Assembly: GCA_963817525.1 (NCBI GenBank)
Contig: CAWFOU010000008.1
Coordinates: 1 to 64,000, forward strand
Length of the DNA stretch: 64,000 nucleotides
Source: an uncultured archaeon
Lineage (GTDB): Archaea; Thermoproteota; Nitrososphaeria; Nitrososphaerales; Gagatemarchaeaceae
Reading direction: 5' to 3'
Under the pieces are notes generated by a model. It worked only from the letters and a program-made list of their open reading frames with translations. It was not told where the DNA came from and did no database searches. Position numbers and translations under genes: made by a program. Positions 7,032-22,038 of the stretch are shown here, one piece after another; position 1 is the first letter of the stretch; each line of letters starts with the position of its first letter.

Positions 7032-10000
7032 ATGAGAAACATCATTCCGAATCAGATGTCGAGGAAAATGTCTTAGCAATACTTGGAAAGTCTCGGCTAT
7101 GAAATAATCAGAGGAGACAACGAGGACTATCTTCCCGGCGGAAGCTCTGCCTTAAGATCCGATTTCAAAGATGTCATTCTGATTGATACGACTAAGAGCA
7201 GCACTGAAGAAGAATCAACCCGTCCATTTCTGAAGAAGCAAGAGAACAAGCAATAAAGCAGGTTTTGAGAAGCGAAAGCCAGAAGCTCATCGCCGATAAT
7301 GAGAATTTCCAAGGATGCTGGTAGATGGCATTGATGTTCCAATTCAATCAGTAGAAGGAGAAGGCCTACAAGAAGGTCTGGCTATTTGACTTCGAGAAGC
7401 CAGAGAATAACGACTTCCTAGCGGTCAACCAATTTACGGTTCGAGAGAACAATGTCGAGAGAAGGCCTGATGTCATTCTGTTCGTCAACGGAATTCCGTT
7501 GCTAATCTTCGAACTGAAGAATCTGGCCGACGAGAACGCCACCATCTGGACAGCCTATGACCAGTTCCAGACCTATCAGGACCAGATGCCTTCTCTGTTC
7601 AGGTACAACGAAATCCTCGTGATCAGCGACGGCGTCGAGGCAAGGGCGGGGACCATAACCTCCGAAAAGGAGAGGTTCATGCAGTGGAAGACAATCAACG
7701 GCGAAAAACCGAGGAAGGGGCTGACGGAAATCGAAGTACTGCTAAGGGGGATGTGCGAAAAGCAGAGGCTTCTCGATATCGTCAGAAACTTCATCGTCTT
7801 TGAGAAGGATAAGGAGACAAAGAAGAAGGTAGCTGCCTATCACCAGTACTGGGCGGTAAACAAAGCGCTCAGGTCAACGCTAACTGCCAGAAGGGGGAAC
7901 AAGAAGGCGGGAATCGTCTGGCACACCCAGGGCTCGGGAAAGTCCCTGACCATGATCTTCTACTCAGGCAAGCTCGTCAGGGAACTGGACAACCCAACTA
8001 TCGTAGTCTTGACAGACAGGAACGACCTGGACGACCAGCTGTTTGGCACCTTCGGGAGGTGTGAGGACATACTAAGGCAGAAGCCAGTTCAAGCCGAATC
8101 TAGAACGCACCTGCAGGAATTGCTCAGGGTATCTTCGGGAGGTATCGTGTTCACCACGATACAGAAGTTCTTTCCGGAGGAAGGCAGGGAAAGATATCCG
8201 GTCCTGTCGGAGAGGGACAACATCGTTGTCATTGCAGACGAGGCCCACAGAAGCCAGTACGGGTTCTCTGCCAAGATTCTGGCCAAGAAAGACAAGACGC
8301 TGATAACCTACGGCTATGCCAAATACCTGAGAGACGCTCTACCCAAGGCCTCCTTTATCGGGTTCACGGGCACGCCCATAGAAAAGGCGGACAGGTCTAC
8401 TCCGGCGGTCTTCGGAAAATACGTCGATACCTACGACATAGAGCAATCAGTAGACGACGGCGCGACCGTGAGGATCTACTACGCGAGCAGGCTGGCCAAA
8501 CTAGAGCTGAAACCGGAAGAAAGGCCGAAGATAGACAAGGAATTCGAGGAATTGACAGAAGGGGAAGAGGTCGAGGGCAAGGAGAAGCTCAAGAGCAAAT
8601 GGGCGAGGGAGGAAAGGGTAGCAGGCTCCCCGAAGAGGATCGAGAGGATTGCGCAAGACATCGTCACGCACTTCGAAGAAAGGACGTCTCTTACCGGGGA
8701 AAAGGGCATGATCGTCTGCATGTCGAGACGAATCTGCGTCGACCTGCACAACGGAATCGCGAAGTTGAGGCCTTCGTGGTACGACAAGGACGACGAGAAA
8801 GGGATCGTGAAGGTCGTGATGACGGGGTCTGCCTCCGACCCAAAGGAATGGCAGGAGCACATCCGAAACAGGATCAGAAGAAGGAAGATAGGCGACGAGT
8901 TCAAGGATCCGGAGAATCCGCTCAAGCTTCTCATCGTGAGAGACATGTTCCTGACGGGATTCGACGCTCCTTCCCTCCACACGATGTACCTCGACAAGCC
9001 GATCAAGGGGCACACCCTGATGCAGGCGATAGCGAGGGTCAACCGGGTCTATCCCGGGAAGGAGGGCGGGCTAGTGGTCGACTACATGGGGGTGGGAGTC
9101 GAGCTGAAGAAGGCCCTCTTCGATTACACCGAAAGCGGCGGCAAGGGGAAGCCTACGCTCGACCAGGAGAAAGCGGTCCTGCTGATGCAGGAAAAATACG
9201 AGGTCGTCAAGGACATGTTCCACGGTTTCAACTACAGGAGGTTCTTCGAGCTGAGTGCGAGCGAGAGGGTGCCGTTCATGCCTCAGGCGATGGAGCACAT
9301 CCTCAAGGAGCAGGGCAAGAAGGAGAGGTTCGCGAGGGAGACCACCGCGCTCCTGAAGGCGTTCTCTCTTGCCGTCCCTCAGGAGGAGGCGATGGAGATC
9401 AAGGAAGACGTCGGGCTGTTCCAGGCGATAAAGTCCGCGATAACCAAGACGACAGAGACGAAGAAGGAGGAGAGCGAAGAGCGGTTCGACGCCGCGATCA
9501 AGCAGATTCTCTCCAAGGCCGTGATTTCGGACAGGATCATAGACATCTTCGAGGCTGCCGGCATGCAGAGGCCAGAGCTCTCAATCCTCTCGGAGGGCTT
9601 CCTGTCAGAGATGAAGGAGATGCCCCAGAAGAACCTCGCCTTCGAGGCCCTCAAGAAGCTGCTGAACGACGAGATACGATTCATCTCCAAGAGGAACGTC
9701 GTCCAGGGCAAGTCCTTCATGGAGATGCTTGACAAGACGATCAAGAAGTACACCAACAGGAGCGTGGAGGCCGCCCAGGTCATCGAGGAACTGATTGAGC
9801 TGGCGAGGAAGGTCAGGGAGGAGAAGGAGAGAGGGAAACAGCAGAACATGACGGAGGATGAACTGGCCTTCTACGACGCACTGGGCGCCAACGACAGCGC
9901 GGTCAAGGTTCTCGGCGACGAGACCCTGCGAAAGATAGCCTTGGAGCTGACTCAAATGATAAGGAAAAGCGTCACGATAGACTGGACGCAGAGGGAGAGC

Positions 10001-10135
10001 GTGCAGGCAGAGATCCGGCTGAAGGTCAAGAAGATACTGAGAAAGTATGGCTACCCTCCCGACAAGCAGGAGAAGGCCACCCAGACGGTGCTGGAGCAAG
10101 CCGAACTCGTGGCAAGAGACTGGGTAGGCAACTGA
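7032..10135 (+). CDS. hsdR: Type I R-M restriction subunit HsdR (N-terminal ~470 bp frameshifted; intact ORF 7499..10135)
   Basis: RRPD...[11 protein letters not shown] nuclease motif, HTQGSGKS Walker A, DEAH box, [21 protein letters not shown]. Confidence 0.93.
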
Positions 10136-10198
10136 AAGGAACTCACGAAGTCAGGCCATGGAGGCTGAAAATGGTCCCAGAAAAGCAAGCAACGCCAA

Positions 10199-10912
10199 TT
10201 ATTCAGCATGTCTGGATTCTGATTTGAATTGGGATTTTATCTCGCGCAGCCGAGCCTGATCGTCTCCAAGCAGCGATTCAAGGGCGAGCAGCGCGTCCTC
10301 TCTGGTTTGCCTTTGTTCGGCTAGGTTTTCATCCTTGTATTGCAAGAATGGGATAATGTGAGTCACCACGGACATGTCATTCTGCCTTCCGAGGGAGAGG
10401 AGAGCACTCTGGACGACTAGATAATTCGGATATTCTAGCAGCTTGAGCAACAGAGGGACGAGCCTCTCATCCTTGATTTCTTCCATGGCCTCGGCGGCGT
10501 CACCAACTGCGAATGTTTGGTCATAGTTCTTCTCTACAAACCCGACTATGGCAGGGACGGCAGTCTTCCCTAGTTTTCGGAGCCATCTGATGCACGTCAT
10601 GTCACTGCCGTCGTCAAGTTCTGCCTTGCTGTATGCCAAGAGAATCCTTAGGAGAAGTGCTGAGGATTGATTCCCTCCAACGCGACCAAGAATCTCAGCG
10701 ACGTAATCGATGTAGTACCGACCCTCCTTCTCCCTCTCATACCTTTCAATGAGCTGGATGAGCGCAGGCATAGCTGACTCTTTTCTTCGGGCTAGTTCAT
10801 CAATGGCCTTCGCCGGCTTCGCCGGAGTCTCCTTCGCATTGTATACCTCTTCCCTGTCGTTGACGAGAAGCGACTCTACCAACCTGTCGGCTCGCTCCGT
10901 CAAGCTCGCCAT
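10199..10912 (-). CDS. HEAT-repeat (PBS lyase-like) protein
   Basis: Repeated helical units such as AAEAMEEIKDERLVPLLLKLL and SALLSLGRQND...VVTHIIPFL. Confidence 0.7.
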   Translation of the reverse strand: MASLTERADRLVESLLVNDREEVYNAKETPAKPAKAIDELARRKESAMPALIQLIERYEREKEGRYYIDYVAEILGRVGGNQSSALLLRILLAYSKAELDDGSDMTCIRWLRKLGKTAVPAIVGFVEKNYDQTFAVGDAAEAMEEIKDERLVPLLLKLLEYPNYLVVQSALLSLGRQNDMSVVTHIIPFLQYKDENLAEQRQTREDALLALESLLGDDQARLREIKSQFKSESRHAE

Positions 10913-11044
10913 TCAACTCCCATGGTTGCGTCGGATACCAATCTGTCCCGCCTTGGTGCATCCTTGGCAGATATATCTCAAGTGTGCGCGCCAGCGCATG
11001 AAGGAAATATCAGAAAGTCTTAATGATTTGAGTCATCTCTCCTG

Positions 11045-12364
11045 TTGGGCGTGCTGAGGATCCTTCAGGTCATCCATGGGTATCCTCCCAGATACAACGC
11101 GGGCTCGGAAGTTTACACCCAGGCTCTGGCCAACGAGCTGACACGGCAAGGACATTCCGTCGCCGTATTCTCAAGAAAGGAGGATCCTGTGCAACCTGAA
11201 TACGAGCTGTCAGAAGAGGTTGACCCTTCCAATTCTCAAGTTAGGCTGCACACCGTCAATCTGGCAAATAGCCGCGACAGGTTCAGCCATGTCAAAGTGG
11301 ACGATGCCTTTGATGAGGTGCTTGACCGATTCGATCCCGACGTCGTCCACATCGGACACCTCAATCACCTCTCCACGTCGATTGTCCACAGAGCTGCGCG
11401 AAGAAAGAAGCCGATCCTGTTCACGCTTCACGACTTCTGGCTTATGTGCCCCAGGGGGCAGTTTCTGCAACTCAACCTTACGGGCGAGCAAAAGGCCCTC
11501 TGCGACGGCCAGGAGGATCGGAAGTGCGCAACACATTGCTACGCGCGGTACCACACGGGCCTGCCGTATGCTGAAGAGCAGGACATCGCCTACTGGACCG
11601 GATGGGTTGGTGACAGGATGGCACACGTGCACGATCTCGTTGCACACGTGAACCTGTTCATCGCTCCGTCCGAGTATCTCAGAAAGAGGTTCATCGAGGA
11701 GTTCGGTGTTGACGGTGGCCGAGTAATCTATCTTGATTACGGCTTTGACCACAAAAGGCTGGGCCTCCGAGCCCGAAGGAAGGAAAGAGATTTCGTCTTC
11801 GGCTACATCGGAACCCACACTGTCGCCAAAGGCATTGACCTGCTAATCCAGGCGTTCGCAAGGGTCGACGGGAAGGCAAGGCTGCGCGTATGGGGCAGGG
11901 AGAACTCTCAGGTCACGCCCGCGCTAAAGGAGATGGCCGGAAGGCTTTCCTCGCCCAAGCGGGACCAGATTGAATGGCTCGGAGAATATAGGAACGAGGA
12001 CATAGTCAAAGACGTCTTCAACAGCGTCGACGCCGTCGTGGTGCCGTCAATCTGGGTCGAGAACTCCCCGCTGGTCATACACGAAGCTTTGCAAGCGCGA
12101 ATTCCCGTGATAGCCTCGAACCTGGGAGGAATGGCCGAGTACGTGAAGCATGAAGTGAACGGCCTGGTCTTCGAGCCTCGCAACGCCTCCGACCTCGCTC
12201 GTCAGATGCAGCGCTTTGTCGACGACCCGGCGCTGGCTTCAAGGCTGGGAGGGGCCGGATACCTCAAGTCGCAGTCCCACGACGTCCCGTCGATTGAAGA
12301 GCACGCGCGGAACCTCACGACCCTGTACGAAAGCGCGCTTGGCAGGAGAGTTATCGCAGGTTGA
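11045..12364 (+). CDS. Glycosyltransferase family 4 (GT-B)
   Basis: HGYPP...GSEVY N-terminus, TLHDFW, KGIDLLI, VPSIWVENSPLVIHEA; Cys-containing insert. Confidence 0.9.
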   Translation: MGVLRILQVIHGYPPRYNAGSEVYTQALANELTRQGHSVAVFSRKEDPVQPEYELSEEVDPSNSQVRLHTVNLANSRDRFSHVKVDDAFDEVLDRFDPDVVHIGHLNHLSTSIVHRAARRKKPILFTLHDFWLMCPRGQFLQLNLTGEQKALCDGQEDRKCATHCYARYHTGLPYAEEQDIAYWTGWVGDRMAHVHDLVAHVNLFIAPSEYLRKRFIEEFGVDGGRVIYLDYGFDHKRLGLRARRKERDFVFGYIGTHTVAKGIDLLIQAFARVDGKARLRVWGRENSQVTPALKEMAGRLSSPKRDQIEWLGEYRNEDIVKDVFNSVDAVVVPSIWVENSPLVIHEALQARIPVIASNLGGMAEYVKHEVNGLVFEPRNASDLARQMQRFVDDPALASRLGGAGYLKSQSHDVPSIEEHARNLTTLYESALGRRVIAG

Positions 12365-13425
12365 TCGGCGCCATAGATGATGGACCCTGGAGAATCACCT
12401 TCGATACCAATCCAGACGACTGCAACCTTCACTGCGTAATGTGCGAGGAGTTCAGCGAGTTCAGCGAAAAGAGGGTGGGGCGGACATTGGAGAGACGCCC
12501 ACCGCGTCGAATGGACGTCGGTCTGATCAGGAAGGTGGTGGAGGAAGCCTCCAAGCGCGGACTCAAGGAGATCATACCGTCGACGATGGGCGAGCCTCTT
12601 CTCTACCATGAGTTCGAGGAAATCCTCTCGATCTGCGATGAGTTCGGCGTCAAGCTGAATCTGACGACCAACGGAACGTTCCCAGGGAAACCAGTTCGAC
12701 AGTGGGCGCGCCTGATTGCCCCGGTTGCAAGCGACGTCAAGGTATCGTGGAACGGTGCGACCGCAAGGACTGCGGAGTCGATTATGAAGGGAATCAGCTT
12801 TGAAAGAGCCCTCGCCAATGTGAGGGAGTTTGTCGGGGTCCGGGACGAAATTGCGTCGACGGGCGGCAACCGCTGCAGGGTCTCATTTCAGTTGACGTTT
12901 CTGGAGACAAATGTCGACGAGCTGCCTGATGTGGTCAAGCTGGCCGCTTCCCTCGGGGTCGACAGGGTCAAGGGTCACCACCTTTGGGTTCATTTCCAGC
13001 AGATTGCGGGATTATCCATGCGCCGCAGCCCCGCCGCGGTGTCCAGGTGGAACCGGCTCGTTGAGCTGGCCGAAGAGGCCGCAGAGAAGTACCGGCTGCC
13101 GAACGGCCAGCGCGTGCTACTTGAGAACATCTTTCCCCTGGACCCCTCGAGTGATGAGATATCACCTGGAGCGGTCTGCCCCTTCCTGGGGAAGGAGGCC
13201 TGGGTGTCCGCTGAAGGGCGCTTCAACCCGTGCTGTGCGCCGGATGATCTCAGGCGGACTCTGGGAGAGTTCGGCAACCTCAGAGAGAAGGGCATCATGG
13301 AAATCTGGACAGGAGAGGAGTATCGCTCACTCAAGTCGACCTACCTCAATAACGACCTGTGCAGAACGTGCAACATGAGGCAGCCCAGGCCCCAGCCCAC
13401 CCTGCATATGCTGTCAGAGGCCTAG
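12361..13425 (+). CDS. Radical SAM protein with C-terminal SPASM/twitch-like domain
   Basis: CNLHCVMC (CxxxCxxC), GEPLL, TTNGT; C-terminal CPF...PCC...GNL...IW...CRTC. Confidence 0.9.
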   Translation: MIGAIDDGPWRITFDTNPDDCNLHCVMCEEFSEFSEKRVGRTLERRPPRRMDVGLIRKVVEEASKRGLKEIIPSTMGEPLLYHEFEEILSICDEFGVKLNLTTNGTFPGKPVRQWARLIAPVASDVKVSWNGATARTAESIMKGISFERALANVREFVGVRDEIASTGGNRCRVSFQLTFLETNVDELPDVVKLAASLGVDRVKGHHLWVHFQQIAGLSMRRSPAAVSRWNRLVELAEEAAEKYRLPNGQRVLLENIFPLDPSSDEISPGAVCPFLGKEAWVSAEGRFNPCCAPDDLRRTLGEFGNLREKGIMEIWTGEEYRSLKSTYLNNDLCRTCNMRQPRPQPTLHMLSEA

Positions 13426-14366
13426 GTGAGAGGTCGAGCAAGGTCCTCATCACGGGGGGCAACGGCTTCGTGGGAAGCCATGTGGCTGACCGTCTCCTCG
13501 CCCGTGGCAATGTCGTGAGGCTTCTTGACCTGAACTTCGATTGGCATTCGGCTGATACCAGCGCCGAAAGGGTCAACTGCGATGTACTGGATTACAGTGG
13601 ACTTCGGAGGGCGGCGGAATCGGTAGACGCTATCCTTCATCTGGCTGCCGTGTCCAGGGTGGAAGACGCTGAGAGTGATCCAGAGAGATGCATCAGGGTC
13701 AACGTAGGCGGAACAATGAATGTAATCCGCGTAGCCCGCGAGACCTCGAAAGCCCTGGTCTTCGCGTCCAGCCGGGAGGTCTACGGAGACGCCGAAGCCC
13801 TTCCAGTCAACGAAGAGACGCCGAAGAGACCCCTCTCTGCCTATGCGCGCTCGAAGCTCGCTGCCGAAAACCTGCTGGCCGAAGCTGGCATAACGGAGGG
13901 CTTGCGGTACACGATAGTCAGGCTGTCGAACGTCTTTGGCTCGCCCCGCGACAGAAGGGAACGTGTGGTGCCCACGTTCGTCAGGCAGGCACTCGCGGGG
14001 CAGCCGTTGACGATCCATGGTGGGGCACAGTGCATGGATTTCACCTTCATCGATGACGTAGCCGATGCAGTTGCGTCTATTGCCGAGAATCCTGGCCGTT
14101 CGAGAGGGGAAGATTACAACGTGGTGTCCGGACGCTCCCACACCGTAATCGAGCTGGCACGCATGGTGCGGCGTTACACTCGCTCGAAGTCCGAATTCAC
14201 CTTCGAGGGGCCGAGAGCATACTATGCGGGAAGGTTCATCGCAAGCGCTGCCAAGATTGACGCGCTCGCCGGAAGGCAGAACGCGGTGCGTGGACTTGAC
14301 GAGGGGCTACCGTTGTGCATCGATCGCGTCGCAGGTCCCAAGATGATGGAAGCAGTGCACGATTGA
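13359..14366 (+). CDS. NAD-dependent epimerase/dehydratase (extended SDR); true start probably near 13426
   Basis: ITGGNGFVG, HLAA, SSREVYG, YARSK. Confidence 0.9.
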   Translation: MQNVQHEAAQAPAHPAYAVRGLGERSSKVLITGGNGFVGSHVADRLLARGNVVRLLDLNFDWHSADTSAERVNCDVLDYSGLRRAAESVDAILHLAAVSRVEDAESDPERCIRVNVGGTMNVIRVARETSKALVFASSREVYGDAEALPVNEETPKRPLSAYARSKLAAENLLAEAGITEGLRYTIVRLSNVFGSPRDRRERVVPTFVRQALAGQPLTIHGGAQCMDFTFIDDVADAVASIAENPGRSRGEDYNVVSGRSHTVIELARMVRRYTRSKSEFTFEGPRAYYAGRFIASAAKIDALAGRQNAVRGLDEGLPLCIDRVAGPKMMEAVHD

Positions 14367-15085
14367 ATTTCACGCGCGAGCGCCCTGACCTGAGCAAGAT
14401 TCGCATCTCCCCTGACGGAACGCACCACCTGCTCGATGGAAGATCCCTCTATTCTAGGCGATTCTCTTCAGTAATGAATTTCCACGAACCAGGGGTTGCC
14501 GCCGTGAAAGACAATCACGGGTCGTTACACATAGACCTAGCCGGGAAGCCCCTCTACAGACGGCGATTCAAGCAGGCGTTCGGCTTTTATCAGGGGCTTG
14601 CGGCAGTCGCGGATGACTCGCGCTGTTTCCACATCGGTCTCGACGGCAGGCCGGTCTACGGGGAGAGGTACGCGTGGGTTGGCAACTTCCAGGAAGATAG
14701 GGCCGCCGTCAGAGACGTCCAGGGAAGCTACTTTCATATCGACCTTGACGGACGCCGCCCCTACAGAGGGAAATACCGTTATGCCGGCGACTTCAAGCAT
14801 GGATTGGCGGTCGTGTACGATTCCTCAGGAAGCCCATTGTGCATCGACCGGGATGGAAAACAGTTGCGGACGGGAAGCTACCGAGCACTCTGGCAGTATC
14901 ACAAGGACTACGCGGTTGCGGAGGATGGTCGTGGATTCTTCCACGTAGATAAGGAAGGACATGCTATCTACACGAAGAGGTACCGCTGGGTCGAACCCTT
15001 CTACAACGGTTTTTCTCTCGTCGAGGAATTCGATGGAAGGCTCGGCCTCGTCAATGAACGAGGCAAGTGGCAAGCTCACGATTAG
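14363..15085 (+). CDS. WG-repeat-like protein
   Basis: Repeats of F-x-x-G-[LV]-A-[AV]-V...FHI-x-x-x-G-x-P-x-Y; TTG start overlaps the upstream TGA. Confidence 0.75.
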   Translation: MNFTRERPDLSKIRISPDGTHHLLDGRSLYSRRFSSVMNFHEPGVAAVKDNHGSLHIDLAGKPLYRRRFKQAFGFYQGLAAVADDSRCFHIGLDGRPVYGERYAWVGNFQEDRAAVRDVQGSYFHIDLDGRRPYRGKYRYAGDFKHGLAVVYDSSGSPLCIDRDGKQLRTGSYRALWQYHKDYAVAEDGRGFFHVDKEGHAIYTKRYRWVEPFYNGFSLVEEFDGRLGLVNERGKWQAHD

Positions 15086-15185
15086 AAATCAGAAGAGACG
15101 CTAACTAATGTTAGGCTGTCAGGTTCCTAGTCTTGCTAGGGGTTGCAGCCATGGGCCATGGAAAAGGTCCAAAAAAAGAAGAGAG

Positions 15186-15206
15186 GCGGATATGAATAAT
15201 ATCCGC
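15186..15206 (-). terminator. Hairpin followed by a T-tract; probable terminator of the ArdC-like gene, now separated from it by the IS
   Basis: GCGGATAT-N5-ATATCCGC stem; T7 run downstream on the minus strand (15171-15177). Confidence 0.55.
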
Positions 15207-15239
15207 ATTCATGTGAGGGCTCCAGGATGGCTCTTCGCC

Positions 15240-15484
15240 TTCCTGCTGATGCGGAGGGGTGGGCACGGCTCGTTATTAGCCTAGCGACTCGACCGGGGTA
15301 GCAGCTCGCCACGCTCCGCTTTTACCGCATGCATTCGATAAGCGCTCCACCTATGGTGGGCGTATTCTGACGATTCAACGGAAGCGGAGCATGCCACACT
15401 CAACGGGCAAAGCTCTCGGAGCTTGCGCTCCGCGCTCAGCGGATATAGAGTGGTCAGGCGTGCTGCCCTGTCCCGACTGTCGCG
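15240..15484 (-). ncRNA. Candidate bridge/seek RNA in the 3' non-coding end of the IS110 element
   Basis: By eye it folds into two hairpins with large internal loops (GGAGC-GCAA-GCUCC cap; GCUCCGCUU/AAGCGGAGC stem with a CCACC-AUA-GGUGG cap); loop segments match the IS flanks. Confidence 0.6.
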
Positions 15485-16582
15485 CTAGGCTACGCCGCCA
15501 CCTCCTCTCTCGAGGCCTTCGAGCTTCTTGTTCGTGAGCGCTTCGTTCTCCCACCTCCAGTGCTCCCTCGTCTTCAGGACGTGGTAGGTCATCCGGAGCA
15601 GCTTCTTCATCGCGAGGACGTGGGCTCGCTTGCCGCTCTTTGTCCTCTCCTTCTGGTGGACGTAGTACCGGTGGAGGTGGGGGTTCCAGTGCATGACCGT
15701 GTCGGTCATGATCCCGAGGGTCCACCTGGCTATCGACGGGCCGTCCTTGGACATCCTGCCTCTCCTCTTCACGTTCGCGCTGTCGCGCGTCTCCGGTATG
15801 ATCCCGAAGAAGCTCGCCAGGTGGTCGACCGTCGGGAAGCGGTTGACATCCCTGACGTACGAGGAGAAGAGCGCAGCGAGATAGTAGTCCACCCCGGGGA
15901 TCGTCATGAGGAGCTTCACGTCCTCGTTGTCCTTTACGAGCGCCTTGGTCCTCTCCTCGAGCGGAGCGCATCTCTCCTCGTAGAACGCGATCTTCTCCAT
16001 CATCGTCTTCAGGACGAGGTCCCTGTCGTCGCCGAACCTGATCGACCTGATCGCCTCCCTCCTCGCGGCGCTGAAGTTGTTGTTCGCCTTCGGGAGCGTC
16101 GCGTAGACGTCCTCTCTCTTGAGGTAGCTGATCGCCGAGCTCTTCGTCCTCGCGATCTCCACGCCGAGCTTCACCCGCTGAATCAGGAGGTCCCTCAGGA
16201 TCTGTTCCTCCCTCGTGAGGAGGTGCGACTCTGGCAGCATGTCCATGAAGAGTAGCCTCGCGATCTTCTCGGAGTCTGCCCTGTCGTTCTTCTTCTTGGA
16301 CCTCACGATGAGCGCGAGCTCCTTCGGGTGGGCGACCGTGATGTTCTGATATCCCATCGCCCGCAGCCTCCTGTTGACGGGATAGGCCATCGTGCTCGCC
16401 TCGTACCCGATCCTCGCGTCCTTCGGTATCCTGCTGGAGAAGAGGGCGTAGCCCGCGTCGTCCATGGAGAAGTTGAACCTCTCCGATATCTCGCCCAGGA
16501 CGGAGTACATCGTCGCGACGCTGAACTCTTCGCCCAGGTCCAGTCCTACGGCAGGTGTCCTCGGAATGCTCAGTTGGCTCAT
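15485..16582 (-). CDS. IS110-family DEDD recombinase/transposase
   Basis: VGLDLG, GYEAS, KNDRADS (DEDD); TIPGVD and FFGIIPETRDSAN (catalytic Ser region); ORF open to 16639. Confidence 0.95.
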   Translation of the reverse strand: MSQLSIPRTPAVGLDLGEEFSVATMYSVLGEISERFNFSMDDAGYALFSSRIPKDARIGYEASTMAYPVNRRLRAMGYQNITVAHPKELALIVRSKKKNDRADSEKIARLLFMDMLPESHLLTREEQILRDLLIQRVKLGVEIARTKSSAISYLKREDVYATLPKANNNFSAARREAIRSIRFGDDRDLVLKTMMEKIAFYEERCAPLEERTKALVKDNEDVKLLMTIPGVDYYLAALFSSYVRDVNRFPTVDHLASFFGIIPETRDSANVKRRGRMSKDGPSIARWTLGIMTDTVMHWNPHLHRYYVHQKERTKSGKRAHVLAMKKLLRMTYHVLKTREHWRWENEALTNKKLEGLERGGGGVA

Positions 16583-16651
16583 TGCCCTTCGAGCTGTCCT
16601 CGTGTCGTTTTTCTCTTTCTTCGTTGTCATTCTCTTCACCCTGACGCAGTA

Positions 16652-16677
16652 GCGACTCCCGTCCTGACGGGAGTCGC
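16652..16677. repeat. Perfect 12-bp inverted repeat in the IS left end
   Basis: GCGACTCCCGTC-CT-GACGGGAGTCGC. Confidence 0.8.
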
Positions 16678-16725
16678 GGGCGAAGAGCCATCCGGAGGAG
16701 AGCCCTCACAATTCAGTCAACGGCA

Positions 16726-17656
16726 TCAGTTGGCAGGGTAGATCAGGTCCAGGACCTTCTTCGTCCTGTCCAGGACGCGCATGCAGAGCCTTCCGACCAT
16801 CTGGGGGTTGTTGGACTGGGCGTACATGGCGATGTAGCTCCAGCTGAAGCTGTCCGCGGGCCTGCCGTAGAGCCTGGCGAGGGTGGCTGCCACGAGCTGC
16901 GCTATCGTCTCGGCCTCCGGCTCCTGCCCGTGGCCGCTCTTGGGTTCGAAGGTGCTGTGGATTGCGTGGCCCGAGCTCGTGGAAGAAGACGTCCCAGTCC
17001 TCGGTGGCAAGGACGATGGTCTTGTTGGTGTGGTCGGTGGCGCCGTACATGCCCGGGGCCAGTCGCTCGTACTGGACCTTCATCCCGAACCTCTCGGCGA
17101 CCTCCATGAGGGGAGGAGGGTTCCTCGGCTCGTAGACGGGGAGGTCCTGGCCGGACGTGTCCTCGTACCGGAAGACGGGGATCGCTTTGAACCCGATGAG
17201 GACGTCCCTGAACTCCTCCGCCCTGGCTCGCCCTGCTCGTCAACGGCTTCCTTGCTTTGACCTTCTTCCTGACCGGCCCCAGGATCCAGAACGCCTTCGT
17301 GCCCTCTGCAGACCCACCTTCCTGCCTCGTTCCACTGCCGGAAGCCCCTGGCATCAGAGGTTCCAGCCAGCGAGCATCAGGAGCTGGTTGCCGAGGGACC
17401 ACTTCGAGGAGGGCTTCTCGGGCGCGTTGATCAGGGCCTTCGCGCACAGGTCAGGGAGCTCCTTCGAGGAGAAGAGCTGGACTATCTTCTCGAGTTCGGA
17501 GTTTGCTCGTTGCCTCCATGATGCCTCGGTTGCGGCCGGCGTCTGGTGTGCTTCCGGCGTCGGTGTCTCGGCGGCTTCCGCTGGTGACTCTTGGTGGACA
17601 TGAGCGAGTTCGCCTGCCGTTACTTCCGTTTCCTTTCGGCTGGGGGTTTCTTCATC
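16726..17656 (-). pseudogene. ArdC-like protein (ssDNA-binding N-domain plus zincin-like domain), frameshifted
   Basis: Joined frames give KWSLGNQLLM, DARGFRQWNEAGR, TKAFWILGP, IPVFRYEDT, FFHELGHAIH, EAETIAQLVA. Confidence 0.75.
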
Positions 17657-17825
17657 GAGCTTCTCCTTTTTCCCTTACACTTAGTTGCAGAGGGCTATTT
17701 CCTCGCCCACGCTGGGCTCTCCGATGGCGTCCGCTCGCGCCAGATCTTCAAGTGCCGTCCGCAAAAAGAGAAAAATATGGAATACGGCTTCAAAGGCCTG
17801 GTCAGCATTTAACGCGGGTCGGGCA

Positions 17826-17982
17826 GGTTGCCATTCTCGGGACGGCTGTTGGCAACCCTGCAATCAAAATGGCAACCCTGGATGGCGATTTGGCAACCTC
17901 TTGCCTCGGTTTTGGCAACCCCGGGACAGGTTTTGGCAACCTTCAACCCGTAATTTGGCAACCCTGCTTTGCCGCGTTGCCA
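17826..17982. repeat. Iteron-like array of TGGCAACC
   Basis: Direct copies at 17850, 17870, 17891, 17913, 17934, 17956 (20-22 bp period), bracketed by inverted copies at 17826 and 17976. Confidence 0.9.
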
Positions 17983-18835
17983 AAGCCGCGAGCCAAGGGA
18001 GGCGGAGTCTGCCCGGCTCTTGAGGTCGGCAGGATGTCAGTATAGACCTGGAAAATCGGTCCAAAAAACACACAAGGGGGAGGGAATTAACTAACCCGCA
18101 ACTCTCTACCTGCGCTCACATAGGGCTACTGCGTCTCGATTCGGTGGTATTGGCAGCTTGGACAGAGGATCCGCGACGGGCATGAGCTCAAGCAGGGTGG
18201 CCAACGGGACGAAGAGGTCTTTCTAAGGTCCGATGTCGAAGACGTACGCGTTAGCTTCTCGTGTCTGGGGCCTTTGCTGTCCATGTGGGCGATTGGAACG
18301 GCGGCCTCAGAGATCTGCATTGGAGCATCGACCTCCCGATCGCTTTTCCTGATAGGGGGTGCTTTTCCAATCGTGGCCTGGTCGGGGCTGCCCATGATGG
18401 ATCAGCTCCAAAACCTGTTTCGCCCTGTCCAGGACGCGCATGCGGCGCCTCCCAACACTGGGGCTGTTTGATTGGCGGTGTCTACGAAGACTCTTACCGC
18501 GGCGTGAGTGGGGAGGTAAATGTTCGGGCGTGGTTGCGGATCCAGAATCGTTACTTCAGGCGCGAAGTAGCTATTGCGCAGCTCTGCCGCTTGGGCATAG
18601 CCGAGGCTACTGCTCCTCTAACGGCACACTCCTACTGGAGCGGGCCTCTGTTTTTGTTTTGGGGGGGGTTGCTTTGAATAGCGATGGAGAAGTAGGCGGG
18701 GATATTTAACGCGGGCAGACCGCGGCCGTTCCTGTCGCGCTTTCCATGACCTCGGACGCAGTCGAGCCCAACACACTCGGGTGTCGCGAGCCGGTCAGGG
18801 CCGAGCCATGACGAAAAGGCGCGGGTGGCGATGGC

Positions 18836-19192
18836 AAAGTGGACAACTTCAGGAGGTCCGGACGGCGCCAAAGTGGACATCCCGGTCGAAAGTGGACATC
18901 CAGGCAGGTTCGGGGGATGAATGTGGACGTCAAGGGTGCCTAAAATCGGGTCGCGGTTGCAAGATCCATGTCCACTTTCGCGCGCCTAGGGGCGGTAAAT
19001 GTCCACCTTCGGGCCTTCAGCCAGGGCGAAAGAGGTCGTCGATGTCAACCTTTGAGAGCCAAAGGCTTGACATCAAAGCCCAGGCTTGACATTTTGGGTC
19101 CAGGGTTGACATTTTTTGAGGGGAAAGACATCACGTATCCGCGTTGCCCCGGCAATGGGCCTGCATTGTCCACCTTCATGGACGTGGACATG
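18836..19192. repeat. Array of GTGGACAT/GTTGACAT-like motifs in both orientations
   Basis: Copies at about 18839, 18873, 18892, 18923, 18968(rc), 18999(rc), 19042(rc), 19066, 19085, 19105, 19166(rc), 19184. Confidence 0.85.
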
Positions 19193-19226
19193 GGTCGCTT
19201 CGGGCACGAGCCAGCCTAAGGGCTGC

Positions 19227-19355
19227 TAATGCTCCACCCTGGAACATTAGCGCGTTTGGGTTAATGCTCCACCCTGGAACATTATTGCACTTTGGAGTAA
19301 TACGCAACCCTTGCGCATTATCGCGTCTGGACCAATACGCAACCCTTGCGCATTA
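19227..19355. repeat. Four tandem 35-36 bp units, each with a 23-bp imperfect palindrome
   Basis: TAATGCTCCA-CCC-TGGAACATTA at 19227 and 19262; [T/C]AATACGCAA-CCC-TTGCGCATTA at 19298 and 19333. Confidence 0.9.
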
Positions 19356-19706
19356 GCCAGTCCCCCGAGACCAGCGGGTCAGTTTTGACGACGCGCGCCG
19401 TCTCACGGGAGCTGTAGCCATATGCAGGCCACAAGTCTCTGCAAGAGTTATGGCCTACATTGGGCCATAACTTTCGATGCTCACGTCGGACAGGCCTAGC
19501 GAGGATGTTCGCAAGGGAACGATTACGCTCGGCAAGCAATTCGTGGACGGCAAGCTTCTTGGGAGGAAGCGAAAGCGCGTCTAGCGGCGAAGAAAAGATT
19601 TCGAGGCATACGCAAAACATGCCGTCTCAACAACAAGCGCAAAATTTAGTAGAATGCAAGCGGAATGCTTCCGATTTTTGTGGGACCCGAGCACAATCCG
19701 CTCGGC

Positions 19707-19781
19707 TAAGGCACAACCCTTGTGCATTAGCTCGTTTGGGCCAATGCACAACCTTTGTGCATTAACCAGTCCGGGAGACCG
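19707..19781. repeat. Two further palindrome units
   Basis: TAAGGCACAA-CCC-TTGTGCATTA (19707) and CAATGCACAA-CCT-TTGTGCATTA (19742), followed by CCAGTCC..GAGACC as after the first block. Confidence 0.88.
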
Positions 19782-20030
19782 TGATACCCAGGTCAGAGAC
19801 GCAATCAGGCGCTAAAGATCCTATTCGCGGTTCTCGCCGTTCAATCGCGGGCGTTCCCTCCTCTGGAGGGCCCGAGACCCGCTAGGCTGTCATTAAACCG
19901 CAAGTGGTGAGTAGCGGCAGAGCTATTTATTCTGACATCTGGAACGTGGTTCCAGACGTGCTTGCCCGCCCCGAAGAAGGAATATCTTGGAACTTTTAGT
20001 AATCTGGTTCGGGCAACTTTCCTGGCCACC

Positions 20031-20088
20031 AATGTCCACCTTAGCTGGACAAGGCTGGACATGTCAACCCCTACCATGTCCACCCTTC
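20031..20088. repeat. Second cluster of ATGTCCAC/TGGACA motifs
   Basis: Copies at 20032, 20045, 20055, 20061, 20076. Confidence 0.75.
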
Positions 20089-20281
20089 AAGGCTAAGGGA
20101 CAAGGGTTGTCACATGTTCCCACCAGACAGTGAGGAGAGCTTGATTCTGTACCCGTGTTAAATATGCAGAACCAGAATACATCCATGGTCCAGGAAGGTC
20201 ACGAGGCTGAGAAGAGAGAGTTCGTAACGGTCAGGAGAGCTGACCTAGAGAGGATCATGGCCCTCCTTTCGAGGCTGGAAG

Positions 20282-20449
20282 ATCAACGTCCTAATGAAGC
20301 ACGAACTGCCTCCCTTGAATATCGAGCTGGAGAACAGGCAAGAGTATTATGAGGCGCTCAGGGAGTATCAGACCAACGGAAACCTGCGTCCTAGCCTCGA
20401 TTTGATGCTGAAGGAGTACCGGCGGCTCAAGGCAGCTCTCAAAAGGTGA
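20282..20449 (+). pseudogene. C-terminal remnant of a Fic-family protein
   Basis: INVLMKHELPPLNIELENRQEYYEALREYQTNGNLRP resembles the helices that follow the Fic motif; the HPFxxGNGR core is absent. Confidence 0.55.
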
Positions 20450-20612
20450 CTACAGTTTCGTGCGTTGTAGTCACCCAGGTTTGGACTCATGAAGGGCTCC
20501 CAAGTGAGGTTGTGGATTCCGTTATCATTAGGGTTCATGGCGCCTCCGCCTGGGCATTTCACTCGCACGTTGAGCTATATGGAGTGGATGGCAGACTTGA
20601 ATCCTATTCTGG

Positions 20613-21098
20613 TTAACGATGGGAAGATGCAATCCCCAGTCTGAATTCTTCCCTGAATCTATTGATCTCATCTGCATTTAGCTTTTCGATGAAATCAAGC
20701 AATTTGGCATTGAACTGCTCGGCTGTTTTGGTCAATTCGATTACTTCTGCCTTCGCAATTTTGAATCCCACGTAATATTGCTTGTCTATTCTCTCCTTCT
20801 TTGCATCCAGAATTTCTGTGTTGTCAAGTGCGAACAGTTCTTTCAGAAGGATTATTGAGGCTGTGTGGTTTTGGCACTTGATGCCAACCACGTACAACAA
20901 CGCTTGCACCGAGTTATACATGCTATAATATGCCATTGTCACGGATTCTTCCAGTTTCTCATTTGCGGAAAGCAATTTGGCTGAGGATAGGTTGCTTTCT
21001 GATTTTTCAAGATAAGATTGTTTAATGGCGATGCTCGGTGAAACGAGTTTCAAAATTCCTTGTTTGTTCAGCTTGATCAGGAAAGGCTCTCTTTTCAA
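20613..21098 (-). CDS. HEPN domain protein
   Basis: YLEKSESNL, AYYSMYNSVQALL, CQNH, RIDKQY; directly downstream of an MNT gene. Confidence 0.85.
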   Translation of the reverse strand: MKREPFLIKLNKQGILKLVSPSIAIKQSYLEKSESNLSSAKLLSANEKLEESVTMAYYSMYNSVQALLYVVGIKCQNHTASIILLKELFALDNTEILDAKKERIDKQYYVGFKIAKAEVIELTKTAEQFNAKLLDFIEKLNADEINRFREEFRLGIASSHR

Positions 21099-21618
21099 AG
21101 AAATCTTCGACGCCCTTTATCACTACGTGAGTTCGGTCTATCTCCTTTATGAGGTTGTTTTCCTTATCGTAGGATCCTATCTTCACACTCAGCCTTGAAT
21201 CAATGTTCTCAATTTCTTTTCTCAGCCTCCTGCTTTGCGTTTCGACAAACAAGTCTATGTCGCTCTTCTTGCTTGCTTCCTTCTTAGCATAAGAACCGAA
21301 TATAACCGCAAGTTTGACCCTTCTATTCTGCTGTAGCTGCTGGACAATTCTTCTAAGCTCTGGATAAGTCTTCAGAAGTTTCGTGAGTTTGTAGAGCTCT
21401 GTCATCAACACAAAGTTTCTCGCTTCGACGGTGCTCTTAATGAAAAATGCTTTGTTTCTCCCTTCGCTACTGGCATCGAGAATGTTCTCTCCCACTAGCT
21501 CTTTTGTCCTTCTCAGAACAGCTGTGTGATTAGTTCCAAGTCTCGCTGCTATTTCTCTGGCATGTAGGTGCTCTCGAAGGAGAATGTCGATTATTTCGAA
21601 TGATAGGTTCTGTTCCAT
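21022..21618 (-). CDS. wHTH-MNT (minimal nucleotidyltransferase) antitoxin
   Basis: N-terminal LHAREIAARLG HTH; FGSYAK...SDIDL (GS-x10-DxD). Confidence 0.88.
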   Translation of the reverse strand: MEQNLSFEIIDILLREHLHAREIAARLGTNHTAVLRRTKELVGENILDASSEGRNKAFFIKSTVEARNFVLMTELYKLTKLLKTYPELRRIVQQLQQNRRVKLAVIFGSYAKKEASKKSDIDLFVETQSRRLRKEIENIDSRLSVKIGSYDKENNLIKEIDRTHVVIKGVEDFFEKRAFPDQAEQTRNFETRFTEHRH

Positions 21619-21641
21619 ATGGAACGCAATTGTTCCATATG
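21612..21641. promoter_or_regulatory. Putative autoregulatory operator over the MNT start codon
   Basis: Perfect palindrome GTTCCATATGGAAC (21612-21625) and partial copy TGTTCCATATG (21631-21641). Confidence 0.55.
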
Positions 21642-22038
21642 ATAATAAAGCTTCCAAAATTGGTTTGGAATGAGGTCAGAAACAATGTGCGCAGTTTAAA
21701 GTTTTAAACTTTATAAAATTCAGGACCGAGGGCTGTTTATACCACTAGCAGTACTAGGTTCGTTCGGCGGAGAGGAAGTTTTGCTGTCTTGCGAATGCCC
21801 GCAATTCGGACATGCGCGGCCATCTGGCGAGACTTGTCTTTCCAATGTGCGAACGCGAGCGTTCGGGGATTTCGCCGCACGTTGGGTTCATTGCGCCTCC
21901 GCCGAGAACACTTCATCCCTGCGTTGGTAGCCGACACGATGCTTGTCATCATGGTGCATCAAGATGTCGACTCCGGTGGAGGCCTTGGGACTGATTGGTC
22001 GTGGCGAAAATTCGCTCTGTCGGAATCTGGGCGCCTGA

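Follow-up and report, generated by a model that had tools for sequence, protein, structure and literature searches.

This locus raises the question of whether the non-coding DNA behind an IS110-family transposase gene in a thaumarchaeal genome encodes an RNA that directs where the element inserts. To our knowledge, recombination guided by bridge or seek RNAs, described in 2024, has so far been demonstrated experimentally for bacterial elements only. For the window, the whole 64,000-nucleotide stretch of DNA that was analysed, a first-pass annotation had proposed a candidate archaeal bridge RNA with loop segments matching the flanks of an insertion sequence, and all of its quoted strings and both of its hairpins lie where it had placed them on the minus strand. 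The analysis reported here indicates, with a probability of about 0.9, that a thaumarchaeal genome carries, at 15208-16719, an intact IS110-family element of the IS1111 type whose 3' non-coding region yields a bridge (seek) RNA of ~180 nt that guides the insertion-site choice of its DEDD recombinase.

The element and its transposase

The following features delimit the element:

15208..16719, minus strand: insertion sequence of 1512 bp, a length that includes the core dinucleotide once (TG in transposase orientation)
15206-15207 and 16718-16719: the two core copies, CA on the plus strand and TG on the transposase strand
15213..15239, minus strand: right-end subterminal inverted repeat, followed by a 5-nt extension (ATGAA) and the core; conserved in relatives
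16679..16709, minus strand: left-end subterminal inverted repeat, preceded by the core TG and an 8-nt extension, ACTGAATT (16710-16719)
15485..16582, minus strand: IS110-family DEDD transposase/recombinase gene, 365 aa from ATG (16582) or 384 aa from GTG at 16639

The host genome (G000; 15 contigs, 2.8 Mb) contains this 1.5-kb element three times, on contig C8 (the window), at C7:139116-140679 and at C1:1164346-1165901, the last copy running into the contig end. Alignment of the copies together with their flanks gave identity within the element limits and divergence outside them. Unoccupied sites, located through the GGTCCAAAAAAA motif in the genome and in one DNA run, read ATATCCG-CA-ACGG at C7:92766 and C7:998952 (...ATATCCGCAACGG... 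and ...ATATCCGCAACGA...) and likewise in a contig from a soil DNA run (X5 record 7 and its loose end), where ...ATATCCGCA is followed directly by ACGGCATCAG. The three copies and the unoccupied sites therefore fix the exact junctions and the TG core independently of the RNA loops, and the duplication at the junctions consists of the core dinucleotide TG and nothing beyond it. Paralogous gene ends (L004-L007), considered as further empty sites, were rejected because the target is absent from them. In the C1 copy (G000:C1:1164668-1165763; locus L028/L034), the transposase gene is split in two near residue 130 and has one in-frame TGA, so that this copy looks broken.

The two subterminal repeats pair with each other as 10 + 15 bp with an indel between the two blocks, which is longer than the 7-17 bp given for IS1111 subterminal inverted repeats in PMC11208160. 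When joined, the element ends read ...CACATGAA-TG-ACTGAATTG... in transposase orientation. Non-coding DNA amounts to 277 nt downstream of the gene (15208-15484), compared with ~137 nt upstream (16583-16719). A strong minus-strand hairpin, GCGACUCCCG-UCAGGA-CGGGAGUCGC, occupies 16652-16677, between the left-end repeat, which it adjoins, and the start of the transposase gene; compensatory changes preserve the hairpin pairing in L008 (CCCA/UGGG) and L044 (CUCCA/UGGAG), and it may be a leader or regulatory structure. A tRNA scan of 10000-22000 found none.

The predicted gene product is an archaeal (Nitrososphaerota) IS110-family DEDD transposase. It matches Pfam PF01548, the N-terminal DEDD/RuvC-like domain (E 4e-8; 33.6 bits, cut-off 29), and PF02371, the C-terminal Transposase_20 domain (E 2e-19; 70.1 bits, cut-off 21.3), and one homologue cluster, P0117, is named 'IS110 family transposase [Nitrososphaerota archaeon]'. 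Residues D15, E61, D100, D103 and S268 are invariant across a 36-sequence alignment of relatives, the four acidic residues being equated with the DEDD catalytic set by position. Against solved structures, the C-terminal domain alone aligns, with ISCro4 (E 3.5e-6) and IS621 (E 4.5e-6), and S268 falls on the Ser of the IS621 ESG motif, which PMC11208158 describes as the catalytic S241. Transposases of IS1111 elements are described in PMC11187229 as 330-350 aa long with the motif GL-P----S(T)G, which ends in SG or TG and occasionally in TA; the present protein carries GIIPETRDSA (GI-P----SA), with Ala after the Ser where Gly is expected. Among named elements in the plasmid collection, ISHvo10 of Haloferax volcanii comes closest, at 29.9% identity over 92% of the protein. 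At the protein level, the length of 365-384 aa and the SA ending depart from the IS1111 description, and full-length relatedness to IS1111 is at most putative.

Target site and host gene

The element splits its target into two halves:

15166..15206, minus strand: right target half, a hairpin GCGGATAT-TATTC-ATATCCGC (15186-15206) followed by a T-rich run and GGACC (15166-15185)
16720..16729, minus strand: left target half, CTGATGCCGT in transposase orientation, holding the TGA stop of host ORF 16726-17010

The target is CCGTTGCGGATAT, or CCGT-TG-CGGATAT in transposase orientation, and it belongs to a module made up of a TGA stop, YRCCGT, the core TG, a hairpin GCGGATAT-N5-ATATCYRC, a T-rich run and GGACC. 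Site and orientation of insertion are both specific: every copy sits in this module and points the same way. With sequence differences, the module flanks all copies as well as L008, an element in another MAG, and it occurs unoccupied elsewhere in the genome. An intergenic module starting with GGTCCAAAAAA gave 12 matches at no more than one mismatch, with sites at 15166-15206 and 18057-18110 of the window and at C7:92766, C7:141815, C7:995569 and C7:998952 of G000; it comes in two sequence variants, one of which is the target of the element, and it may be a terminator or a small repeat element.

Host ORF 16726-17010 is without a Pfam match. Two minus-strand frames cover the host gene (16706-17107 and 16726-17010), one containing ...VFFHELG and the other HAIHSTFEP..., and an HExxH metallopeptidase-like motif appears to be split between them by a frameshift. 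Look-alikes of the 3' end of this gene are present at C7:1280643, C7:142124, C8:18400 and C2:5112. The element is co-oriented with the host ORF, and read-through expression from the host gene is therefore possible; for IS621, read-through transcripts are reported to give functional bridge RNA (PMC13626964).

Relatives of the element

A search of genome contigs with the single protein gave only two close loci. In a phylum-wide protein search of 401 genomes, everything retrieved outside G000 was 24-36% identical; in the species-genome collection, the closest loci are L008 (88% protein identity) and L009 (100%), both from Thaumarchaeota/Nitrososphaerota MAGs. The informative relatives were supplied by a metagenome scan. 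A protein search returned 409 proteins with E <= 1e-20 among 8000 candidates scored, mostly ~60% identical to the query, and a profile built from 36 relatives led to 80 metagenome loci. The resulting recombinase clade spans 60-100% identity and includes many natural retargetings; its members are kin of each other, and all covariation counts given below overstate independence. The largest subfamily (among L045, L047, L056 and L062-L105) has targets of the TGGTGTG|CACACAC type, that is, GT/CA repeats, and several flanks in this subfamily resemble tRNA 3' ends (GGTTCAAAT...CGCACCA).

A conserved RNA structure downstream of the gene

The putative RNA and its main parts are as follows:

15294..15475, minus strand: bridge/seek RNA core, a ~180-nt three-way junction, defined by covariance model R1 and compensatory changes
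15457-15474 with 15295-15310, minus strand: closing stem P1
15394..15453, minus strand: hairpin 1 (target-binding loop), with outer stem CCAC/GUGG, inner stem GAGC/GCUU, a terminal hairpin and a large internal loop
15313..15390, minus strand: hairpin 2 (donor-binding loop), with a long outer stem, inner stem ACGC/GCGU, a variable terminal hairpin and a large internal loop

On the minus strand, hairpin 1 reads CCAC UC-UAUAUCCGCU-GAGC..GGAGC-GCAA-GCUCC..GCUU-UGCCCGUUGAGU-GUGG. When 15207-15484 is folded as a single sequence (z = -3.29; 200 shuffles), a long closing stem encloses both hairpins. For the comparative analysis, the 225 nt 3' of the stop codon were aligned from the window and from 66 loci with at least 230 nt there, leaving 55 sequences after removal of exact duplicates (alignment A4); a second alignment of 52 sequences (A5) omitted L062, L109 and L115. 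RNAalifold predicted 37 pairs from the 55 sequences, 25 of them compensatory. Three of its pairs within the hairpin 2 loop (A4 columns 156-208, 157-198 and 158-197) were excluded as unsupported. The curated structure, which comprises P1 and the outer and inner stems of both hairpins, has 34 pairs; across 52 sequences, 96.9% of cells are paired, a proportion that falls to 28-55% if the 3' partners are shifted by 1-3 columns. Both sides have changed in 22 of the 34 pairs, with hairpin 2 (helices 6-8) contributing such changes in 11 of 15, and none of 500 shuffles reached any of five measures. Among the relatives, stems are constant or compensated, whereas the loop sides vary.

The covariance model built from homologues, a check that the first-pass annotation had called for, thus describes a conserved structure. 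This model, R1 (158 positions), has exactly three matches in the genome, which are the three element copies (111 bits, E 4e-24). A search of Rfam over 14500-17500 at E up to 1 returned no matching family and a single chance lncRNA match.

In distant thaumarchaeal IS110 loci, R1 gives only weak matches of 15-30 bits. Full-length matches of 23-30 bits occur in L024, L026, L030, L032 and L036 (thaumarchaeal genomes G068 and G020) and in L033; in L024, L030 and L036 (~25% protein identity), the match lies upstream of the gene, which is the IS110-type arrangement, and in L033 it lies downstream. No R1 match was found in or around the haloarchaeal loci L123 (ISHvo10) and L124. Just past the closing stem and outside the modelled RNA, 15270-15292 (minus strand) carries the motif UAGGYUAAUARC, which is common to the window, L008, L041, L043, L044, L051 and L115.

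Hairpin 1 and the target flanks

The two sides of the hairpin 1 loop correspond to the two target halves:

15438..15449, minus strand: 5' side, in which AUAUCCGC (15439-15446) is complementary to top-strand core G + CGGATAT
15398..15409, minus strand: 3' side, in which CCGUUG (15401-15406) equals the top-strand left flank CCGT + core TG

CGGATAT is the right flank in transposase orientation, and core G + CGGATAT corresponds to plus-strand 15199-15206, which is identical to AUAUCCGC. On the 3' side, CCGUUGA had been described as the reverse complement of the flank at 16717-16723; the match is present, but its seventh base, the A after CCGUUG, is the first base of the element and not part of the flank. 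In the window alone, mononucleotide shuffling of the non-coding region produced an 8-nt complement to the 18-nt core and right flank in 84 of 5000 trials and a 6-nt identity to the left flank and core in 2528 of 5000, the latter being chance level, so that the earlier caution about short matches was justified for the window taken by itself. Since these matches are short and only modestly above chance, the case rests on the related elements, where the loops change with the flanks.

The junctions of the relatives were placed through their subterminal repeats, independently of the loops. On the 5' side, the reverse complement of the loop equals the second core base, sometimes both core bases, and the next 7-9 bases of the right flank: read in this way, the guides give G-CGGATAT in the window, TG-CCTCTT in L041, G-CTCGATA in L043, TG-GCACATGC in L044, CG-CACACGC in L045 and A-TGGGTAGGC in L058. 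Across 40 unique guide-flank pairs, the 5' side matches its own right flank at a mean of 7.45 of 9 bases, with 22 of the 40 at 8 or more, whereas pairing it with the right flanks of differently guided elements gives 3.67 of 9 and in no case as much as 8 (1246 pairs). The 3' side equals the left flank plus core TG in the relatives as well (TCCATCTTG in L059, TCGATCTTG in L102 and TTGGTGTG in L047) and scores 6.83 of 9 over 36 unique pairs, with 3.35 of 9 in cross-comparison (792 pairs, six of which reach 7); the window's own 3' side scores 6 of 9. Some matches extend to 10 nt (TGGCACATGC for the guide of L044, ATGGGTAGGC for that of L058 and TCCATCTTGA for the left guide of L059). These flank counts leave out L051, L075, L091 and L114 (right-end anchor misplaced), L109 (lacking an identifiable right end), two loci with flank sequence shorter than 10 bases, and exact duplicates. 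The guides of the relatives fall into well over ten target classes, and this loop-flank covariation supports a hairpin 1 loop that would read both target halves.

Hairpin 2 and the element ends

The hairpin 2 loop would be expected to read the joined ends of the element:

15328..15342, minus strand: 3' side, in which GAAUGC (15331-15336) equals right-end GAA + core TG + first flank base C
15363..15378, minus strand: 5' side, UUGAAUCGUCAGAAUA, expected guide for the left end and nearly invariant

GAAUGC had been called junction-related at the outset, and it indeed tracks the right end together with the core and the adjoining flank base. On the 3' side, the triplet ahead of the core changes with the right end in all six variants (GAA, GCG, ACG, GAG, AGG and ATG); in the window, GAAUG occupies 15332-15336. 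The next base, past the core, agrees with the first right-flank base in 19 of 29 unique rows, with three different bases (C, G and T) represented; the 10 misses all belong to one subfamily, with loop ACGCGA, in which the base at this position equals the first base of the left end. In both hairpins, the post-core bases of the 3' sides thus match the recombinant junctions and not the substrates, a pattern that would correspond to the logic of the handshake guides described for IS621 (PMC11208158). Structure and covariation together thus extend to three of the four loop sides.

The fourth, the 5' side of hairpin 2, is nearly invariant, like the left end TGACTGAAT (TG-ACTGAAT) itself. Three registers of about 4 bp were compared between them, and none is convincing. 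The best, UCAG:CTGA (4 bp), is 100% complementary at two of the four positions over 30 unique rows, with one compensatory change each in L111 and L115, and seven loci with left end ACTCA are uncompensated; the others are GUCA:TGAC, which includes the core, and alignment columns 152-157 over the core and first bases.

A further hairpin 2 segment that had been linked to the junctions, CCGUUGAAU, does not bear this out. It is the 3' end of the outer-stem strand together with the start of the 5' loop side, and it is kept in relatives with other left flanks (L041, L043, L059 and L063). As a second target guide it was rejected, because its bases covary with the opposite stem strand; it is stem sequence, and its flank match is coincidental.

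Junction cores are mixed in some relatives. In the ACGCG subfamily, the core is CG in the donor guide and TG in the target guide, and most right junctions are CG, but those of L053 and L105 are TG; L058 and L082 have TA at the right junction and TG at the left. Such mixed cores would be in keeping with staggered cleavage around a mismatch-tolerant core of two bases.

Expression and proposed mechanism

Among the 22 public runs listed, three metatranscriptomes cover small shares of the stretch. A 253-nt contig of X18 lies wholly on 15213-15465 with 0 differences, a 153-nt contig of X20, from the same study, lies on 15398-15550, and two 151-nt contigs of X19, from another study, fall within the transposase gene. 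These contigs are shallow (depth 3-5), carry no strand or end information and could reflect DNA carry-over, and they are a weak hint that the bridge RNA region is expressed. No circle junction or other joint was seen in DNA run X5 and the RNA runs, which leave most of the element uncovered and are uninformative on this point.

In the proposed mechanism, for which we infer RNA transcription and processing, binding by the recombinase and the chemistry, the 3' non-coding region would be transcribed into a bridge (seek) RNA of ~180 nt that the DEDD recombinase uses to pick a site. Hairpin 1 would read the target and hairpin 2 the joined ends of the element, the extra base by the core in hairpin 2 being the presumed counterpart of the IS621 handshake guide. 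Recombination at the TG core would then insert the element in a single orientation, downstream of a stop codon and ahead of a terminator-like hairpin and its T-run.

Alternative explanations

The loop-flank matches might be due to chance or be a by-product of the repeated target, with the region serving the transposase gene as a structured 3' UTR or as a terminator. The shuffle frequencies obtained for the window lend themselves to this explanation, as does the palindromic nature of the right flank, whose other arm (15186-15193) also equals AUAUCCGC. It is nevertheless highly improbable, because the guides change with the flanks over many targets, not one of the 1246 mismatched pairs reaching 8 of 9, and because stems are kept by compensation while the loops vary. 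Slightly more remote still is the idea that the hairpins act as single-stranded DNA structures at the element end, in the manner of IS200/IS605, and not as RNA. Stem covariation cannot separate DNA from RNA, but G-U pairs are frequent in the transcribed sense (GC:22 GU:17 AU:13 at one pair and CG:31 UG:20 at another); on the other strand these would be A-C mismatches, so they fit a strand-specific RNA rather than DNA. In addition, the protein is a DEDD/IS110 recombinase, whose relatives use RNA according to PMC11208160 and PMC11187229, and RNA-library contigs cover the region.

A more serious alternative, although we regard it as rather unlikely, concerns the division of labour within the RNA: hairpin 1 alone might be the guide, as in a short seekRNA, and hairpin 2 a scaffold for protein binding or processing, the ends being recognised by the recombinase through the long subterminal repeats. 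Near-invariance is seen on the 5' side of hairpin 2 as well as at the left end, no register between them being convincing, the 10 + 15 bp repeats are unusually long, and, as PMC11187229 describes it, an IS1111 seekRNA of 70-100 nt with target matches only sufficed, the role of the long form being left open. The 3' side of hairpin 2, however, tracks the final three right-end bases in six variants and agrees with the first base of the flank in 19 of 29 rows, for which a pure scaffold has no reason; in addition, UCAG and CTGA have changed in a compensatory manner once in L111 and once in L115. The reading in which both hairpins guide the recombinase is accordingly preferred.

Implications

The locus would extend RNA-guided recombination to a well-documented natural family of Nitrososphaerota. 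Its series of natural retargetings is a ready data set on which guide positions matter, including the handshake-like base, and a covariance model now exists for an RNA that Rfam does not match. For annotation, the finding explains a 277-nt 'empty' region and a repeated insertion hotspot, the terminator-like module after stop codons.

More speculatively, the clade, so far found in thaumarchaeal MAGs and in soil, peat and sediment metagenomes, might be a distinct archaeal branch of RNA-guided recombinases that combines three features: RNA reading of the target and right end with recognition of the left end mainly through the long bipartite repeat, handshake bases on the guides for the bottom strand, and the lack of its own promoter, with expression by read-through. 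That all three hold together is doubtful. Left-end recognition by the long subterminal repeat draws its main support from the lack of a convincing register in the 5' loop side of hairpin 2. If this proposal is true, handshake bases on bottom-strand guides imply an order of strand exchange mirrored relative to IS621, and sense insertion between the host stop codon and the host T-run terminator would make the guide RNA a processed 3' end of the host transcript.

Comparison with known systems

The element most closely recalls the IS1111 seekRNA systems described in PMC11187229 (ISEc11, ISKpn4, ISPa11 and ISPst6). In both, the RNA lies downstream of the gene, the subterminal repeats are set in by short extensions, the top-strand match precedes the bottom-strand match within the RNA, the two overlap where insertion takes place, a specific site is entered in a fixed orientation with no target duplication, and close relatives have been retargeted naturally. 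The differences are the archaeal host, the longer transposase (365-384 versus 330-350 aa) with SA in place of SG or TG, and the longer, bipartite subterminal repeat. IS1111 seekRNAs are backed in PMC11187229 by co-purification, essentiality and reprogramming, whereas the thaumarchaeal element is known from sequence. For the IS1111 elements of ISfinder, a bridge RNA was predicted in 93% of cases by Durrant et al. (PMC11208160).

With IS621, as described in PMC11208160 and PMC11208158, the RNA shares two hairpins with internal loops, the target loop first and the donor loop second, and an extra core-adjacent base that matches the non-cognate partner in a handshake-like manner; the C-terminal domain and catalytic Ser of the proteins also align, although the sequence search finds similarity in that domain only (E 4.5e-6). 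The RNA lies in the right end here and in the left end in IS621, the core is TG versus CT, and the closing stem leads into a three-way junction. The misfit to the IS621 geometry suspected in the first-pass annotation is real: it arises because the top-strand guide lies 5' of the bottom-strand guide, the reverse of IS621 (PMC11208160) and the order published for IS1111-family seekRNAs (PMC11187229). The strand order of each loop is thus a mirror image of that in IS621, and in transposase orientation it is the bottom-strand guides that carry the handshake-like bases. Reading the element on its opposite strand would give the RNA as a whole the IS621 layout, with handshake bases at the 3' ends of the 3'-side guides.

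ISHvo10 of H. volcanii plasmid pHV4 (annotated 'IS110-like element ISHvo10 family transposase') is likewise archaeal and is the nearest named element, but it is distant (29.9%) and has no R1 match; in PMC11187229 it is classed as a diverged relative of IS1111 and said to have long non-coding stretches on both sides. Archaeal IS110-family recombinases as such are not new, with 662 on record in Vaysset et al. (bioRxiv 10.1101/2024.06.21.599552), and that text makes no mention of Thaumarchaeota or Nitrososphaer. A literature search by title and abstract start found no paper on such a thaumarchaeal element, which is not proof of absence. Collectively, these comparisons identify the element as a well-supported new example of a known RNA-guided system, not a new kind of system, and they leave the known mechanism unchanged.
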